Positions 6,768-16,124 of a DNA stretch of 16,124 bases are shown one piece after another. Source of the DNA: Methanobacteriaceae archaeon (GTDB taxonomy: Archaea; Methanobacteriota; Methanobacteria; Methanobacteriales; Methanobacteriaceae); contig PWMT01000048.1 in NCBI GenBank assembly GCA_003558085.1, forward strand, positions 1 to 16,124, in the 5' to 3' direction. The notes beneath the pieces are model-generated. The model saw only the letters and a program-made list of their open reading frames with translations, ran no database searches and was not told the DNA's origin. Numbering within the stretch: the first letter of the stretch is position 1; every line of letters starts with the position of its first letter. The position numbers were made by a program, and so were the translations under genes.

Positions 6768-7430
6768 TTGGCTACTTTTCTACAAGCAAATACAATATTG
6801 AATGCTTGGCATAAAGCAGTTAAAGAAGTCTACCTCAACGGTGCGACAATTATAGACGAAAATGACACAGAAACACGAGAAATTCTTGATTTAATCATTG
6901 AAATACGAAACCCTAATATCCAAATTGGAGAACATGAGTTTTGGAAAACCGATGCCATTGAGAGGTATTGCGAGCAATTACTCGACTCCTCGAAGGGCTC
7001 TTTTTCTTACACGTATGGTAATCGTTTACGTAGCCATTTTATCAGTAATCCATTACTCGACCCAAAAAAGATTGACCAGATTGAAAAAGTTATTAGAAGG
7101 TTGGAGAAAGGAAATAATACTCGTAAAGCTGTTGCTGTACTCTTCGATCCAACGGTCGACCACGATGCAGATGATATACCTTGTATTGACCTCATAGATT
7201 TCAAGATTCGAAATAAAAAGCTTTACCTTTCTGCATACTGGCGAAGCAACGATATTTATGGTGCTTATTATGCGAATGTCAAAGGTTTAAAGTATGTTGC
7301 TGATTTCGTAGCTGAAAAAACTAATTCAGAATTGAAACGCATCACTACGCATGGTGGGTCAGCCCATATCCTCAAGTACGATTTTGTAGCTGCTGAGGAG
7401 CTTGCGATGATGGATAAAATGAAAAAATAA
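6768..7430 (+). CDS. thyA: Thymidylate synthase, archaeal/methanogen ThyA type
   Basis: YTYGNRLR, NTRKA, catalytic IPC, WRSNDIYGAYYAN (Asn indicates dUMP specificity), SAHI; TTG start directly after the upstream stop. Confidence 0.9.
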   Translation: MATFLQANTILNAWHKAVKEVYLNGATIIDENDTETREILDLIIEIRNPNIQIGEHEFWKTDAIERYCEQLLDSSKGSFSYTYGNRLRSHFISNPLLDPKKIDQIEKVIRRLEKGNNTRKAVAVLFDPTVDHDADDIPCIDLIDFKIRNKKLYLSAYWRSNDIYGAYYANVKGLKYVADFVAEKTNSELKRITTHGGSAHILKYDFVAAEELAMMDKMKK

Positions 7431-7572: not shown

Positions 7573-7600
7573 ACCATTAATGGTAAAATATATATATTAG
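7573..7600 (+). promoter_or_regulatory. Promoter of the polymerase operon with a 12-bp palindrome ACCATTAATGGT abutting BRE/TATA
   Basis: Perfect palindrome at 7573-7584 followed by AAAATATATATATT; GAGGAG RBS before ATG 7635. Confidence 0.55.
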
Positions 7601-7634
7601 AAGAGATATAAATTATAGAACTCGAGGAGAAAAA

Positions 7635-9071
7635 ATGAGGGAAAGAAAAATATTTGAAGCCATAAAAAACTGCAAGAGCTGCGAATTACATAAAACAGCC
7701 AAAAACAAAGTCATCGGCCGGGGGAGTCTTTCCCCGGATGTCTTATTTGTTGGCGAAGCGCCTGGAGCAGAGGAAGACATACAGGGTAAACCATTTGCAG
7801 GACCGAGCGGAGAACTCCTAAACCACTGGATAAAAAAATTGAAGACTAAAAAAGTAGCAATAATAAATATAATAAAATGCCGCCCACCAAAAAACCGAAC
7901 CCCTACTAAGGAAGAGGTAGAAGAGTGTTCGAAATTTCTCGAAGCTCAAATAGAATTATTAGACCCTAAAATTATTGTCGCATTAGGTACTGTTGCAATG
8001 AAAGAATTATTAGGGTTTGACACAGGGATACTAAAAAAAAGTGGAAAAATAGAAACCAGTTACAAATATTTTAATAAACCAGTTTTTATAATGCCACACC
8101 CCGCTTACTTCTTACGCCAGGGCGGAAAAGGTTGGGAAGATGATATAAAAAGTTTAAAGGAAGAAATAAATAAAAAACATCACTTTCAACCTTTCGTACC
8201 ACTTCATGTACATTCTCATTTTTCAATAAAAGATGGGTCTAGTAAATGTTCCGAATTATTTAAAGAAGCAAAAAAACAAGGTTACACAGCTCTAGGCATC
8301 AGCGACCACGGCACAGTGGCTGGATGGGTGGATTTTGCTATGGCAGCAAAACAATATGAAATAAAACCGATATTTGGGATAGAATTTTATGTAGGTAACT
8401 CACATAAACCAAAAGATAAAAATAGAGAACATATATGTGCTTTCGCTAAAAACCAGAAAGGAATAGAAAATATTATAAAATTAGTAAATATTAGTAACGA
8501 TAACGAACATTTTTATTATAAACCAAGAATTTTTTTAGAGGATTTAATGCAATATAAAGAAGGGTTAGTTATAACATCAGCATGCGTATTAGGAGTTATT
8601 TCCCAAAAAATAATCGAAGGAGATTATCCAGAAGCAAAGAAAATAGCTGAAATGTTAAAAAAAGAATTTAAAAACGATTTTTATTTAGAATACCAAATTC
8701 ATAATTTCGATAAGCAGGAAAAAGTAAATTTAGCAATTAAATCTTTATCTGAAGAATTAAATATACCCACAATAGTAACCACCGATGTACACTACACGAA
8801 TAAAAGTTTTAAAGAATTACATAATAGTTTGAAAGCTATCGCATATCATAAGAAATATGGGGAAGCGAATTTTACAGGAGACTCCCATTGCATACTAAGT
8901 ATTAAAGAAATGGCTGAATATGCAGAAAACGTAGGTTTAAATTACCAAGAAGTAATGAAAGCAGCAAAAAATACACTAGAAATAGCAGAAAAATGTAATG
9001 GAAAATATGAATCATTTGGCTTAATTATTCCAAAATTTGATGCTACAAAATATTCACAACAAATAAAATGA
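7635..9071 (+). CDS. udg: Family-4 uracil-DNA glycosylase fused to the PHP domain of DNA polymerase III alpha (N-terminal part of split DnaE)
   Basis: UDG4 part: CKSCELH, GEAPG, KCRPPKNRTP...C, HPAY. PHP part: LHVHSHFSIKDG, ISDHG, IFGIEFY, FYYKPRI, TSAC, TTDVHY, ending at IPKF where the DnaE PHP domain ends. Confidence 0.92.
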   Translation: MRERKIFEAIKNCKSCELHKTAKNKVIGRGSLSPDVLFVGEAPGAEEDIQGKPFAGPSGELLNHWIKKLKTKKVAIINIIKCRPPKNRTPTKEEVEECSKFLEAQIELLDPKIIVALGTVAMKELLGFDTGILKKSGKIETSYKYFNKPVFIMPHPAYFLRQGGKGWEDDIKSLKEEINKKHHFQPFVPLHVHSHFSIKDGSSKCSELFKEAKKQGYTALGISDHGTVAGWVDFAMAAKQYEIKPIFGIEFYVGNSHKPKDKNREHICAFAKNQKGIENIIKLVNISNDNEHFYYKPRIFLEDLMQYKEGLVITSACVLGVISQKIIEGDYPEAKKIAEMLKKEFKNDFYLEYQIHNFDKQEKVNLAIKSLSEELNIPTIVTTDVHYTNKSFKELHNSLKAIAYHKKYGEANFTGDSHCILSIKEMAEYAENVGLNYQEVMKAAKNTLEIAEKCNGKYESFGLIIPKFDATKYSQQIK

Positions 9072-9082
9072 GGTAAAAAATA

Positions 9083-11536
9083 ATGGAAGATAATTACACA
9101 ATTATGGAAAAGCTTTGTCAAAAAGCCTTAAAAGAAAAGAAGCTCCATAAAAAACAAGATTACAAAGATAGACTGGAATATGAGCTTCAAATCATAAAAG
9201 ATAAAGACTTCGTTGATTATTTCTTTATCGTAAAAGATGTTGTAGATGCGGCAAGAGAGAAAGGGATTATGTTAGGACCGGGTCGAGGAAGCTCAGGAGG
9301 TTCTTTAATTGCATATTTGCTTGATATAACACAAATTGACCCTTTAAAGTTTGGTCTATACTTTGAAAGATTTATAAATCCTGCTAGACATGATAATCCT
9401 GATGCCGACCTAGATTTTCAATCAAGTAGACGAGATGAAATGTTTGAATATTTAGAGGAGAAATATGGCAAAGAGTGTGTAGCAAGAATACCAAGCATTG
9501 TTAAATTCAAACCTAAATCTGCATTGCGCGATTTAGCTAGAATAGAGGGTATACCTATTCAAGAAGTAAATCTTTTAACAAAAAATATTCCAGATAATCT
9601 TCCACTTGAACATGTGCTTAAATTAAAGGAAGCTTCAATATTTTTGAATAAGTATCCAAGAGTTGCAAAAATTCTTCCTCAACTTTTGGATAAAATTAGA
9701 CATACAGGGGTTCATGCTGCGGCATGTGTAATTACACCTATATCTGTGGACAATTTTTTCCCATTAGAAAAAAAAGGAAGATTTTTCTGTGCATCTTTTG
9801 ACAAAGACGCATTAGAAGATTTAGGTTTTTTAAAATTAGATTTACTATCTTTAAAAACTTTGGATGTAATAGATGAGGCAATAAAGAATATTAATAAAAA
9901 TGGATATAAGACCAAATTACCTTTAGAGCCTGATGACCCAGAAATTTATAATCATATTTTTATTCCAGCTTATACAAATGGTGTTTTTCAATTTGAAACA
10001 ACGAATTTAACCGATTATGCTAGAAAGGTTAAAATCGATAGTTTTAAATTATTAACTGATACGACTTCCATAGCTCGTCCTGGAACAGCAGCTAGTGGTG
10101 ATGCGGCTAAATATATTGATAGAAGGCACGGTAAAGAAAGTGTTCAATATATACATCCGTCTTTAGAGCCAATTCTGCATGATACATATGGAATTATTGT
10201 ATATCAAGAGCAAATCATGCGGATTGTTAATGAAGTAGGGGGTTTACCTTTAAGTGATGCGGAGATTATAAGAAAGTTAATTTCCAAATCAAAAGGAATA
10301 TCTGCTCTAGAAAATTACAGAAATAAATTTGTTGAGGGCGCCCAAAATAATGGGGTTTCTAAGGATTTGGCTAATAAGATTTGGGATTCTATAAAGGAGG
10401 CTGGTAATTATTCATTTAATTTGTCTCATGCTGTGGCTTATAGTCTAATAAGTTATTGGTGTGCTTGGTTAAAACGTTATTATCCTCGTGAGTTTTTAGC
10501 GGCTTTGATGAGGTTTGAGGAGGGTGGAATGTTTGCTGCGGCTACGGAAGAGTTGAAGTTAATGGGGTATAAAGTTTTAGACCCAGATGTTAATACTTCT
10601 GATAATCGTACAAGCATTAATGAATCTGGTGATGTGTTGATTGGTTTAGAGGACGTCGATCAGGTTGGCTCTGCGGCTGTAGAGGAGATTAAAAGGTTAA
10701 GGCCATTTAAAAGTTTCGATGATTTCTTGGATAGGGTAGAGGCTCGTAAAGTTAATAGTCGCTCCATAAAGCATTTAATATTTGCTGGAGCGTTTGAAGC
10801 TTTCGGAGAGAAGGAAAAGCTTTATTATAGAATAGCAACGGATGAAAAACCTCGTAAATGGACGGATAAGGAAGAGATTATGAAAAAATATGCTGTTATA
10901 AAAACTAGCCCTCGGCAGCCTATTATTAACTTCTTCGACCATACAGCCATCCAAGCAACCAAAAACAACGGCGGCCTGACGGACATTGGGGCGGTCGATT
11001 GGGAGTCTGCCTCGGAGGAAGTTTATATTAAAGGAATAATTACCGAAATCGACATCAAAATAGGATATGCAATAATGGATATAAACGATGGAACAGGCAC
11101 AGCAAATGTTTTAATACCTAAAGAAAGCTTAGACAAATACCGTGAAATATTCGAAGAAGGAACAGGAACACCAATACTAATAAAAGCCCACAAAAGAGCT
11201 GAAAATAGTAGATTCTACCTTGATATGTTAATCGACTTAAGAAACGAATTAGAATCTGATAGTAAAGAATATAGATATTTAACTGGCGAAACATATAAAT
11301 ATATAACAGAGCAGGGTAGAAGTGGCGAAGCATTAGTTGTATCCTCCTCATATTTCTTATCAAAACAAAACCAGAATAGAGGTACAAGATTAACATTAAT
11401 AAATCAAGATGGCATGTTTAATAGAATGTGTTTCGATTCTCTACAACAAGATATAGAGGCAGGAGATATCATCAAATTCCAAGAATCGGGCTACGAACAA
11501 GTTTTTATAAAATTCATAGATTTTATTTATTCATAA
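9083..11536 (+). CDS. dnaE: DNA polymerase III alpha (family C) catalytic core lacking PHP: palm, thumb, fingers, HhH, OB
   Basis: GPGRGSSGGSL, FERFINPAR, PDADLDF (catalytic Asp pair), HAAA, KLDLL (third Asp), GVFQFE, RPG, YQEQIM, YSFNLSHAVAYS, PDVNTS, OB fold VYIKGII...INDGTG; own RBS GAGGT at 9070-9074. Confidence 0.95.
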   Translation: MEDNYTIMEKLCQKALKEKKLHKKQDYKDRLEYELQIIKDKDFVDYFFIVKDVVDAAREKGIMLGPGRGSSGGSLIAYLLDITQIDPLKFGLYFERFINPARHDNPDADLDFQSSRRDEMFEYLEEKYGKECVARIPSIVKFKPKSALRDLARIEGIPIQEVNLLTKNIPDNLPLEHVLKLKEASIFLNKYPRVAKILPQLLDKIRHTGVHAAACVITPISVDNFFPLEKKGRFFCASFDKDALEDLGFLKLDLLSLKTLDVIDEAIKNINKNGYKTKLPLEPDDPEIYNHIFIPAYTNGVFQFETTNLTDYARKVKIDSFKLLTDTTSIARPGTAASGDAAKYIDRRHGKESVQYIHPSLEPILHDTYGIIVYQEQIMRIVNEVGGLPLSDAEIIRKLISKSKGISALENYRNKFVEGAQNNGVSKDLANKIWDSIKEAGNYSFNLSHAVAYSLISYWCAWLKRYYPREFLAALMRFEEGGMFAAATEELKLMGYKVLDPDVNTSDNRTSINESGDVLIGLEDVDQVGSAAVEEIKRLRPFKSFDDFLDRVEARKVNSRSIKHLIFAGAFEAFGEKEKLYYRIATDEKPRKWTDKEEIMKKYAVIKTSPRQPIINFFDHTAIQATKNNGGLTDIGAVDWESASEEVYIKGIITEIDIKIGYAIMDINDGTGTANVLIPKESLDKYREIFEEGTGTPILIKAHKRAENSRFYLDMLIDLRNELESDSKEYRYLTGETYKYITEQGRSGEALVVSSSYFLSKQNQNRGTRLTLINQDGMFNRMCFDSLQQDIEAGDIIKFQESGYEQVFIKFIDFIYS

Positions 11537-14755: not shown

Positions 14756-15490
14756 ATGGATCAATTACTAAAGAAAGGTGCTGTTTTGATCGAAACATAT
14801 AAAAGAGTAAGGAAAGAACAAGATAGTTCACTTTCAAGACTTAGAAGCGCTAGAAGAGGTTTACCCATCAATGTTATTCGAGACTTGGAAGATTTAATAT
14901 ATTTTCCTTTCGATAAAATTATTAATAATTTAGAAGATGAAATTGCTAATACAATGCAATTAATTCCTGTATATAATAGTTTTTTATATAAAATTAAGGG
15001 GCTCAATATATATGATGCATTAGAAATTTTAGTCTTAATTCGCGATGTTAAACGATTTAAGAATATTAGTAAATTATGGGCATATGCTGGACTTGCACCT
15101 ATTGAATACTGTAAGGTTTGTGGCAAGAGAATGAAAGCAAAAGTGAATTATTGTAAATGTGTTTCACCTGAAATTGTTATGATGACTGAGAGAAAACGCA
15201 ATGGAGGGCAGGTTTCTTATAATGAGAGGCTTAAAAAGAAATTAAATCAAGTCTTTAATATTGTAATAGATACTGATGAGTATTATAAAGATAAATATTC
15301 AGAGTATAAAATTCATGAATTTGCAAAGGAAGATAGAATTACTGCATTACACGCAAAAAACAGAGCAAAAAGAAAAGTAATAAAACTCTTTTTAAATCAT
15401 TTATTTATTGAATGGGCAAAGTGTGATGACATTAAGAAACCCCGACCATATCAACCGTTATCGGATTTTAAGGAGGCTGAAGATGAGTAA
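14756..15490 (+). CDS. IS110 Transposase_20 / Nop-domain-like protein lacking the RuvC (DEDD) domain, with Zn-ribbon insertion (TasA-like candidate)
   Basis: IKGLNIYDALEILVLIRDVKRFKNISKLWAYAGLAP matches the IS110 C-terminal domain, followed by CKVC...CKC, YNERLK and HAKNRAKRKVIKLFL. The N-terminus is only a short coiled coil. Confidence 0.75.
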   Translation: MDQLLKKGAVLIETYKRVRKEQDSSLSRLRSARRGLPINVIRDLEDLIYFPFDKIINNLEDEIANTMQLIPVYNSFLYKIKGLNIYDALEILVLIRDVKRFKNISKLWAYAGLAPIEYCKVCGKRMKAKVNYCKCVSPEIVMMTERKRNGGQVSYNERLKKKLNQVFNIVIDTDEYYKDKYSEYKIHEFAKEDRITALHAKNRAKRKVIKLFLNHLFIEWAKCDDIKKPRPYQPLSDFKEAEDE

Positions 15491-16124
15491 TATTTTAGTT
15501 GTAAAAAGTAATGGTGAATGTGAAACATTCAAACCAAGGAAGATTGTTGAAAAATTAATTAATGAAGCAGATGTAGAGCCAGATTTGGCTAAAAACATTG
15601 CTAGACGTGTTTCTCGAAAGATTAGTGATTTAGATATTGACGAAATTGATAGTATTAAAATTAGAAATATTGTTAACAACCATCTAATCAAAGAAGGTGA
15701 ATTTGATAGAGAAACTCAGCATGAACGTCTGGGCGTTAGTGTGGCTGACATTAAGGACCAAATAGAGAATGGGAGTCGGGACAACGCAAATATGTCTCAT
15801 AATCCAGAAACAATTCATAAAATGGTAGCAGATATGGCGCTTAAACAGTTCGCTTTAATCGACTTACCCTCTGATATTGTCCGTTCTCATGTTACGGGTG
15901 ATTTTCACTGTCTTGCTCCAGAAATGTTAATTGTATATAAAATTAAAGAAGAAATTTATTTATCTACAATTAAGGATTTTGTAGAAGATTATTTTAATAT
16001 AGAAGAGGATATTTTTGTCCCTAGCTTCAATGTAGAGAATAAGGAGGTTGAATGGAAAAAAGTAGTTAATGTAATGAAAAATGACCCATCACAGTTATAT
16101 AAAATTACTTTTACAAGAGGAAGA
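15483..16124 (+). CDS. nrdD: Anaerobic (class III) ribonucleotide reductase with ATP cone, intein-containing; 3' truncated (not in ORF track)
   Basis: MSNILVVKSNGECETFKPRKI ATP cone; RLGVSV...ENGSRDNANMSHNPETIHKMVADMALKQFAL...SHVTGDFH resembles methanogen NrdD; AGGAGG RBS; frame open to the window end. Confidence 0.88.
   Translation, partial: MSNILVVKSNGECETFKPRKIVEKLINEADVEPDLAKNIARRVSRKISDLDIDEIDSIKIRNIVNNHLIKEGEFDRETQHERLGVSVADIKDQIENGSRDNANMSHNPETIHKMVADMALKQFALIDLPSDIVRSHVTGDFHCLAPEMLIVYKIKEEIYLSTIKDFVEDYFNIEEDIFVPSFNVENKEVEWKKVVNVMKNDPSQLYKITFTRGR
15909..16124 (+). mobile_element. Intein N-terminal splicing region within nrdD (continues beyond window)
   Basis: NrdD similarity stops after GDFH. 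The sequence continues CLAPEMLIVYK (block A, Cys1), TIKDFVE, VPSFN...VEWKKV, LYKITFTRGR, typical of a Hint-domain N-terminus up to just before block B. Confidence 0.85.

Follow-up and report, generated by a model that had tools for sequence, protein, structure and literature searches.

The stretch of DNA analysed here (16,124 nucleotides, hereafter the window) is a complete contig (C145) belonging to a genome bin of 1.86 Mb with a completeness of 95.9%. It carries two adjacent genes that together code for a family C DNA polymerase (DnaE). The first, open reading frame 1 (ORF1; 7635..9071, + strand, stop codon TGA at 9069-9071), encodes a protein of 478 amino acids (aa) (P0001) in which a family-4 uracil-DNA glycosylase (UDG4) domain precedes a PHP domain. 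The second, ORF2 (9083..11536, + strand), encodes an 817-aa polymerase subunit (P0002) devoid of PHP domain. The two ORFs have the same orientation, lie in different frames and are separated by 11 nucleotides (nt). By direct reading, a Shine-Dalgarno-like GAGGAG (7624..7629, + strand) is found 5 nt before the ATG of ORF1. At the junction between the two genes (9070..9082, + strand), a Shine-Dalgarno-like GAGGT (9070-9074) overlaps the TGA of ORF1 and is separated from the ATG of ORF2 by an 8-nt spacer, and a TAA (9074-9076) stands in frame with this ATG at 9083. The preliminary description of the locus, made from the DNA letters, had reported that the second gene has its own ribosome-binding site and an in-frame TAA just before its start codon, and direct reading of the sequence agrees.

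The N-terminal domain of ORF1 (residues 1-178; 7635..8168, + strand) matches the Pfam UDG family PF03167 over residues 28-165 (E 3.6e-34). A sequence search of the PDB retrieved for it the family-4 UDGs TM0511 (1L9G/1VK2, E 2e-33), S. tokodaii 4ZBX and T. thermophilus 1UI0, and its four [4Fe-4S] cysteines C13, C16, C82 and C98 align with those of the three enzymes. Family-4 UDGs are defined by a motif A of the form GE[AG]PG and a motif B of the form HP[SA]. The GEAPG at residues 40-44 and the HPAY at residues 155-158 of ORF1 fit these motifs, and the domain also contains F54 and N78. The second domain (residues 185-478; 8187..9068, + strand) is a PHP domain of the DnaE type that matches PF02811 over residues 190-355 (E 5.1e-42) and whose PDB relatives are the PHP domains of Pol III alpha (2HPI, 5LEW/7PU7 and E. 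coli 4JOM/2HNH). Its nine metal ligands (H191, H193, D200, H225, E250, H266, C317, D384 and H386) align residue by residue with those of Taq Pol III alpha (2HPI) and Mycobacterium tuberculosis DnaE1 (5LEW). The ligand pattern HHDHEHCDH matches HHDHEH[C/H]DH, the signature by which a 2026 survey calls a PHP domain 'active' (PMC12926913).

An AlphaFold model of ORF1 built on 11 homologues has a mean predicted local distance difference test (pLDDT) value of 84.3, a predicted template modelling score (pTM) of 0.70 and a pLDDT of about 90 over residues 1-180. Searched against known structures, the model recovers both the Pol III alpha PHP domains (4GX9, 2HNH, 5LEW) and the UDG4 structures (1L9G, 4ZBX, 1UI0); the UDG alpha/beta fold matches 1L9G with a Foldseek E of 1.3e-16 and a target-normalised template modelling score of 0.85. 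When ORF1 is aligned with ten split homologues (alignment A1; 41-46% identity), the UDG cysteines, F54, N78, H155 and the nine PHP ligands are invariant in 11/11 sequences. Among the motif residues listed only E41 and A42 vary: motif A is GEAPG in 5/11 split homologues including the window, and GLNPG in 6/11 and in Methanobacterium virus PhiF1. The alignments to PDB relatives and to the ten split homologues thus support the initial reading that the PHP metal ligands, the Fe-S cysteines, GEAPG and HPAY are all kept.

ORF2 carries the polymerase core (9104..10354, + strand), composed of the palm and thumb (DNA_pol3_alpha PF07733, residues 8-255, E 1.2e-73) and of the fingers (PF17657, residues 259-424, E 9.9e-42). 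The catalytic aspartates are found in PDADLDF (about residues 105-111) and KLDLL (about residues 251-255), and the motifs PDxDxDF and K.D.L are kept in 12/12 aligned clade members. The core is followed by a (HhH)2 domain (residues 495-577; 10565..10813, + strand; Pfam HHH_6, E 1.5e-19) and by a probable OB fold (residues 647-694; 11021..11164, + strand), whose Pfam tRNA_anti-codon match (E 5.4e-4, 20.3 bits) is below the 27-bit cut-off. The C-terminal region (about residues 700-817; 11180..11533, + strand) replaces the tau-binding domain of bacterial DnaE1. It has no Pfam match and is specific to the clade, inside which it is conserved, for instance in a S.YF.SK.G.NRG motif. A DnaQ-type exonuclease domain was seen neither on ORF1 nor on ORF2.

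The full-length DnaE profile PHROG 405 is shared out between the two products, positions 33-334 being covered by ORF1 and positions 338-1077 by ORF2, so that the cut is clean at the PHP/Pol3 boundary, with nothing lost or duplicated. This coverage and the Pfam matches uphold the earlier statement that DnaE is cut at the PHP/palm boundary into two genes in different frames. The PHP domain and the Pol3 core are found on two ORFs rather than on one polypeptide, and this separation is kept in relatives. A single dnaE gene disrupted by a frameshift that arose in sequencing or assembly, or inactivated by mutation in recent times, could also leave adjacent ORFs in different frames only 11 nt apart, and the closest relatives, P0122 and P0275, are single chains of 1271 and 1298 aa. 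Against such an artefact or pseudogene, the Logan contigs of three public runs, drawn from two samples of which one may be the window's own source, present substitutions only and no indel over positions 8600-9600; one X1 contig covers this whole interval and one X3 contig covers 8742-9250. The claim that the split is not an assembly frameshift is therefore borne out in these contigs. A simple frameshift could not yield a fused product in any case, because a ribosome entering the ORF2 frame before 9074 meets the TAA, and the TGA of ORF1 precedes 9077. The Shine-Dalgarno sequence and ATG proper to ORF2, with the in-frame TAA just upstream, also speak against a broken gene, as do the retention of all catalytic residues at 41-46% identity and the end position of ORF1, which is common to 24 classified UDG-PHP proteins. 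Finally, five different junctions at the DNA level are found among nine loci, one of which (L007) has four genes intervening between the two halves. The artefact or pseudogene explanation is largely refuted and we consider it highly improbable; the split is confirmed as genuine.

No split intein is present at the break. No Hint or intein Pfam match was obtained on ORF1 or ORF2, and the fused homologue P0122 aligns, across its continuous junction, with the C-terminal 11 residues of ORF1 and the N-terminal 10 of ORF2 without extra sequence. As the ORF ends align directly to this junction, there is no room for split-intein halves, which accords with the absence of split-intein motifs noted at first, and the polymerase of the window is expected to stay in two chains.

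The split architecture recurs in relatives. A word-index search recovered ten further proteins limited to UDG and PHP (465-524 aa) among the best 120 listed of 623 proteins with E <= 0.001, out of 8000 scored candidates, and all ten end within a few residues past a conserved IPKF motif. An exhaustive search of representatives at 50% identity gave twelve more UDG-PHP-only proteins among the best 150, at least one of which, P0128, is PhiF1's own cluster. Most of these further representatives stop at most about 15 residues from the PHP match, and five have tails of 38-69 residues. Junctions were compared at nine distinct loci (the window, PhiF1 (L001), L007 (=L098), L096, L097, L100, L101, L102 and L103), three others (L099, L104 and L145) being excluded as cut by contig ends. 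Five of the nine readable junctions are split and four (L100, L101, L102 and L103) are fused. The five split junctions all differ at the DNA level: an 11-nt gap with frame change in the window, an in-frame stop followed directly by an ATG in L096, a spacer of about 220 nt in L097, overlapping frames in PhiF1, and in L007 four genes (coding for a 101-aa protein, DUF4406, a 133-aa protein and AAA_28) that place the halves 1.5 kb apart. The polymerase half of L007 is a PHP-less DnaE of 815 aa. Since relatives keep the halves as separate genes, once 1.5 kb apart, a two-subunit polymerase is the natural reading, and the comparison of these loci favours the two-subunit replicase proposed at the outset. 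In L096 (L096:1823-1848), the halves are in the same frame and parted by a single stop and ATG, an arrangement that could permit termination-reinitiation or occasional read-through. In a methanogen of the same family as the host bin, another locus (L086; G007:C10:19257-23120) contains a PHP-only ORF of 301 aa followed on the same strand by an open-ended ORF of 485 aa, which may represent a split without UDG domain, possibly in another provirus.

A quick maximum-likelihood tree of the UDG+PHP segments was built from 53 rows (2 fragments of 55 were dropped), with support given by the Shimodaira-Hasegawa-like approximate likelihood ratio test (SH-aLRT). ORF1 belongs to a clade (21 rows, support 98) with 18 split and 3 fused members, and its nearest neighbours include the fused P0122 and P0275. 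The split or fused label changes 8 times over the tree, at least 6 changes being forced by well-supported branches, a provisional count since some 'split' rows come from short contigs. Breaks or joins have therefore recurred at the PHP/palm boundary. Rows with the GLNPG form of motif A, PhiF1 among them, group in a single clade (11 rows, support 96). The window keeps GEAPG.

PhiF1 (GenBank MK994522), a cultured virus of Methanothermobacter thermautotrophicus, is among the closest known systems. Among 50,697 phage records it gave the best match to ORF1 (97% coverage, 38.5% identity), and a query coverage of at least 80% was reached in 3/50,697 records only, namely PhiF1 and two records of mycobacteriophage Tonenili. 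The Tonenili match extends over 96% of the length at 23.6% identity and, in that phage, crosses genes annotated as SSB and hypothetical that lie upstream of DnaE. PhiF1 has the same two-gene layout and the same split point as the window in its ORF58 and ORF57, with 38% identity for both proteins. The two loci share the gene order thymidylate synthase, UDG-PHP (ORF58), DnaE (ORF57), PD-(D/E)XK nuclease, hypothetical protein, ERCC4 nuclease, transposase_20-like protein and NrdD; unlike the window, PhiF1 has a putative ATP-dependent protease (ORF52) before NrdD. ORF58 (L001:9022-10365) has GLNPG where the window has GEAPG, and its GenBank note reads 'DnaE superfamily protein with N-terminal family 4 UDG domain'. 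At the PhiF1 junction (L001:10280-10420), the frames overlap and no ATG is found near the start of the homology between ORF57 and ORF2. The annotated start of ORF57 is a TTG, overlapping ORF58 by 80 nt.

ORF57 (L001:10286-13816) also differs from ORF2 by an insert of about 340 aa after GPGRG. This intein-like segment, which has weak Hint matches and no counterpart in the window, is a probable intein. An insert of about 1.1 kb is found at the same position in L097 (L097:2940-4099). PHROGs contain stand-alone PHP fragments (7513 and 13169) and PHP-less DnaE families (11165 and 12219) cut about 100 residues further downstream than the window polymerase. The site of the PhiF1 and L097 inserts corresponds roughly to the end of PHROGs 7513 and 13169, so that an intein site falls at a second position where phage DnaE is repeatedly broken.

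Fusions of UDG to DnaE are numerous. The 150 best representatives were classed by phmmer with the UDG, PHP and Pol segments of the window as queries; as the ranking favours proteins with both query domains, the class counts are not frequencies. UDG and PHP occur together in 107/150 of these clusters. The commonest class is PHP-Pol-UDG (66/150), followed by single-chain UDG-PHP-Pol (29/150), PHP-Pol (25/150), PHP only (15/150), UDG-PHP only (12/150) and UDG only (3/150). UDG is thus fused to a full DnaE in at least 95 clusters at 50% identity, and Rhizobium phages cover 94-99% of one PHP-Pol-UDG representative. A C-terminal variant is also published: in Timinskas et al. 2014, a DnaE whose OB and C-terminal domains are replaced by an archaeal-type UDG (PF03167) is reported under the name 'DnaEX' from Yersinia pestis and Salmonella enterica strains (PMC3919608). 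DnaEX, whose domain order is that of the commonest class above, resembles the window in joining a family C polymerase with a PF03167 UDG and differs from it by a C-terminal UDG on a single chain (PMC3919608). In the window the UDG is N-terminal, the gene is split and both sites are intact.

The search for UDG4+PHP proteins beside a PHP-less DnaE proposed in the preliminary description thus finds the architecture in PhiF1 and its relatives, and the novelty first attributed to it is retained only in part. The layout is already in the record of PhiF1 ORF58, UDG-DnaE fusions are numerous in metagenomes and a DnaE with C-terminal UDG is published (PMC3919608). A publication treating the fusion of UDG, PHP domain and DnaE together was not found, and no title or abstract on methanogen viruses with DnaE, or on phage DnaE fused to UDG, was found relevant. 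Nor was a description of the PhiF1 genome found, in a search that did not extend to a 2023 compendium of methanogen viruses and its supplements, which may discuss the architecture. In two articles naming PhiF1 (PMC9796341, PMC8540584), terms for DnaE, 'polymerase III' and uracil are absent; the others naming it deal with different subjects, judging by title and abstract. The window is a well-supported further example of a recorded layout (PhiF1) within a published theme (UDG-DnaE fusions), and not a new class.

Other replicative polymerases share single traits with the window. M. tuberculosis DnaE1 (5LEW, 7PU7) and Taq Pol III alpha (2HPI) have a PHP domain with the same complete nine-residue metal site and a fold that the predicted structure matches; unlike the window polymerase they are single chains without UDG. 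The family A polymerases of the SPO1 type (PDB 9QHS, 'putative DNA polymerase I') have, like ORF1, an N-terminal UDG fold on a viral replicative polymerase. Residues 14-163 of 9QHS match residues 35-174 of ORF1 (E 9e-11), and PHROG 17 also matches ORF1. These polymerases differ from that of the window by their family (A, not C), by the absence of a PHP domain and by the absence of a split. Replicative polymerases made from two genes are also known from the split-intein DnaE of cyanobacteria and the split PolB of Methanobacteriales (PMC3919608, PMC4104785). The cyanobacterial DnaE is split at another site and re-joined by a split intein, unlike the window polymerase, and the Methanobacteriales PolB belongs to a different polymerase family.

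The host bin contains McrA and is therefore a methanogen, and the window DNA occurs in soda-lake and salt-lake metagenome runs. Just upstream of ORF1 lies a gene for a short methanogen-type thymidylate synthase (220 aa; 6768-7430). The 204-nt gap upstream of ORF1 contains, by direct reading, an A+T-rich TATA-like stretch, AAAATATATATATTA (7585..7599, + strand), a possible archaeal promoter of the two-gene unit. A sigma-70 scan gave 19 sites for 19.1 expected and is uninformative, the host being archaeal. Downstream, an ORF of 244 aa with a partial Transposase_20 (IS110-family) match (14756-15490) occupies the same position as PhiF1 ORF53 ('transposase 20 superfamily-like'); its product resembles a domesticated DNA-binding module of a replication/recombination cluster more than an insertion sequence. 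The contig ends in an ATP-cone anaerobic ribonucleotide reductase gene (NrdD; 15408-16124). Relatives also carry a dCTP deaminase (PhiF1 ORF65; L007:4164-4757). With its thymidylate synthase and NrdD, and the dCTP deaminase of the relatives, the gene module handles deoxyuridine nucleotide intermediates. When the whole window was searched against the host bin, only two short matches were obtained, both to the nrdD region (window 15777-15956): 35 nt at 91% (G000:C82:21690-21724) and 45 nt at 82% (G000:C20:4371-4415). They are taken for homology with a host gene and not for CRISPR spacers.

Taken together, the window is probably the replication module of a virus or provirus resembling PhiF1, with a methanogen of the Methanobacteriales type as host. 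It would code for a heterodimeric family C polymerase whose two chains are translated separately from two genes, one of them a UDG-PHP chain. In the mechanism proposed, the first gene would give the 478-aa chain, made of a family-4 Fe-S UDG, a short linker and a DnaE PHP domain, and the second the 817-aa chain with palm, thumb, fingers, (HhH)2, probable OB fold and clade-specific tail. The PHP domain would dock non-covalently on the palm and thumb of ORF2, as it does within a single-chain DnaE, to form the heterodimer. As its HHDHEHCDH ligand set is complete, the PHP domain should act as 3'-5' proofreader, a role attributed to that of M. tuberculosis DnaE1 and Thermus Pol III alpha in two articles (PMC11348249, PMC10634781). 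The tethered UDG would clear uracil out of the viral DNA close to the replisome. The analysis establishes how the two genes are laid out, which domains they carry, that the key residues and the split are conserved, and that the gene order agrees with that of PhiF1; the formation of the complex, both enzyme activities and the place at the fork where the UDG acts are predictions.

The gene content of the host bears on this proposed uracil-excising activity. The window gene is the sole PF03167 match in the host bin, a family found in 13/60 other genomes of the host family and 0/2 of the genus, and the lack of another UDG-superfamily gene in the bin is new here. In M. thermautotrophicus, according to two articles, no UDG-superfamily gene is present and uracil repair is started by the ExoIII homologue Mth212 (PMC1636421, PMC2673441). 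Given the single PF03167 match and the situation in M. thermautotrophicus, the virus would bring an activity that its host may lack.

The region of ORF2 between the (HhH)2 domain and the OB fold (about residues 585-646; window 10835-11020) deserves a separate comment. The beta-clamp-type motif segment (Q..LF and variants, read by eye) present in 12/13 other DnaE rows is replaced there by a gap in 9/9 clade rows, and DnaN (PF00712) was found in 0/3 of the complete PhiF1 record, the 92-kb L007 contig and the host bin. That this polymerase clade lacks the beta-clamp motif segment is likewise a new observation. A PIP-box at residues 611-617 (QPIINFF; clade consensus xPLID[FY][FY]) was considered as PCNA-binding motif and rejected, because 13 other DnaE sequences align a conserved 'HPL..' element before the OB fold at this place. 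A complex predicted without controls between the PCNA of the host bin (L095:1501-2232) and ORF2 residues 585-645 scored 0.00 (mark 0.32), a value that speaks neither for nor against binding.

In the poxvirus polymerase holoenzyme, the D4 UDG serves as a processivity component. By analogy, the UDG fold of ORF1 could be mainly a DNA-binding and processivity module that replaces the missing sliding-clamp link, and not a repair enzyme. The loss of the clamp-motif segment throughout the clade and the absence of DnaN from the three sequence sets examined point in this direction, as does the change of motif A to GLNPG in 6/11 homologues. The window protein has, on the other hand, every residue expected for catalysis and uracil recognition, and the invariance of F54, N78, H155 and the four cysteines in 11/11 homologues speaks for an active site under selection. 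The GLNPG form is similar to a MUG/SMUG-type motif and, on this likeness, may reflect a specificity shift or changed chemistry rather than a loss of activity. A UDG with mainly a processivity role is therefore regarded as improbable; that an active UDG would in addition aid processivity, as first suggested, is compatible with the missing clamp segment.

The UDG-PHP protein could also be a self-contained base-excision-repair enzyme apart from the polymerase, its PHP domain cutting the abasic site or trimming the 3' end, which would leave the PHP-less DnaE without built-in proofreading. The PHP domains of bacterial PolX have 3'-5' exonuclease and abasic-site (AP) endonuclease activity (PMC12926913). 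Moreover, the two genes of L007 are separated by four others, and the at least 6 split/fused changes on the quick tree indicate that the modules separate easily. Yet ORF1 carries a DnaE-type PHP domain that is complete with its C-terminal helices as far as the palm boundary; in the nearest relatives this domain and the polymerase form one covalent chain, and the two window genes are 11 nt apart in the same orientation. An enzyme acting independently of the polymerase thus seems distinctly improbable. A further possibility, by analogy with PolX, is additional cleavage of abasic sites by the PHP domain, in which case UDG-PHP would form a two-step repair module.

Several points weigh against the heterodimeric viral polymerase favoured here. 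Its host assignment relies on the binning of the contig with a methanogen genome and on the synteny with PhiF1, and the binding of the ORF1 and ORF2 chains to each other is inferred. The GLNPG of the sister clade (6/11 and PhiF1) means that the chemistry or the specificity of the glycosylase may not be the same throughout the group, or may be dispensable. If the UDG acted on single-stranded template, it would leave abasic sites behind, and simple 'editing at the fork' is hard to square with this. Lastly, with the L007 genes 1.5 kb apart, strict co-translation is not required and the UDG-PHP protein could act on its own. A wider proposal, which we consider unlikely as it stands, is that UDG-PHP would be an exchangeable editing subunit combining uracil removal, proofreading and AP-site or 3'-end processing in a uracil-proof, clamp-free replisome of UDG-less archaeal hosts; the repeated fission would then reflect selection for a detachable module comparable to E. 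coli epsilon.

Family C polymerases are the replicases of bacteria, and none is known from archaea. The virus lineage described here indicates that a family C enzyme can work inside an archaeal cell while divided over two chains. The architecture being already recorded for PhiF1, the value of the window is that of a well-supported example, a natural two-chain DnaE worth the attention of biochemists. Its smaller chain combines an intact PHP proofreading site with an intact UDG site, a beta-clamp link is not recognisable, and the host bin contains no further UDG-superfamily gene. Overall, it offers a natural system in which to ask whether the PHP domain is needed in cis, how a DnaE without clamp achieves processivity, and why UDG folds are so often found on viral polymerases.

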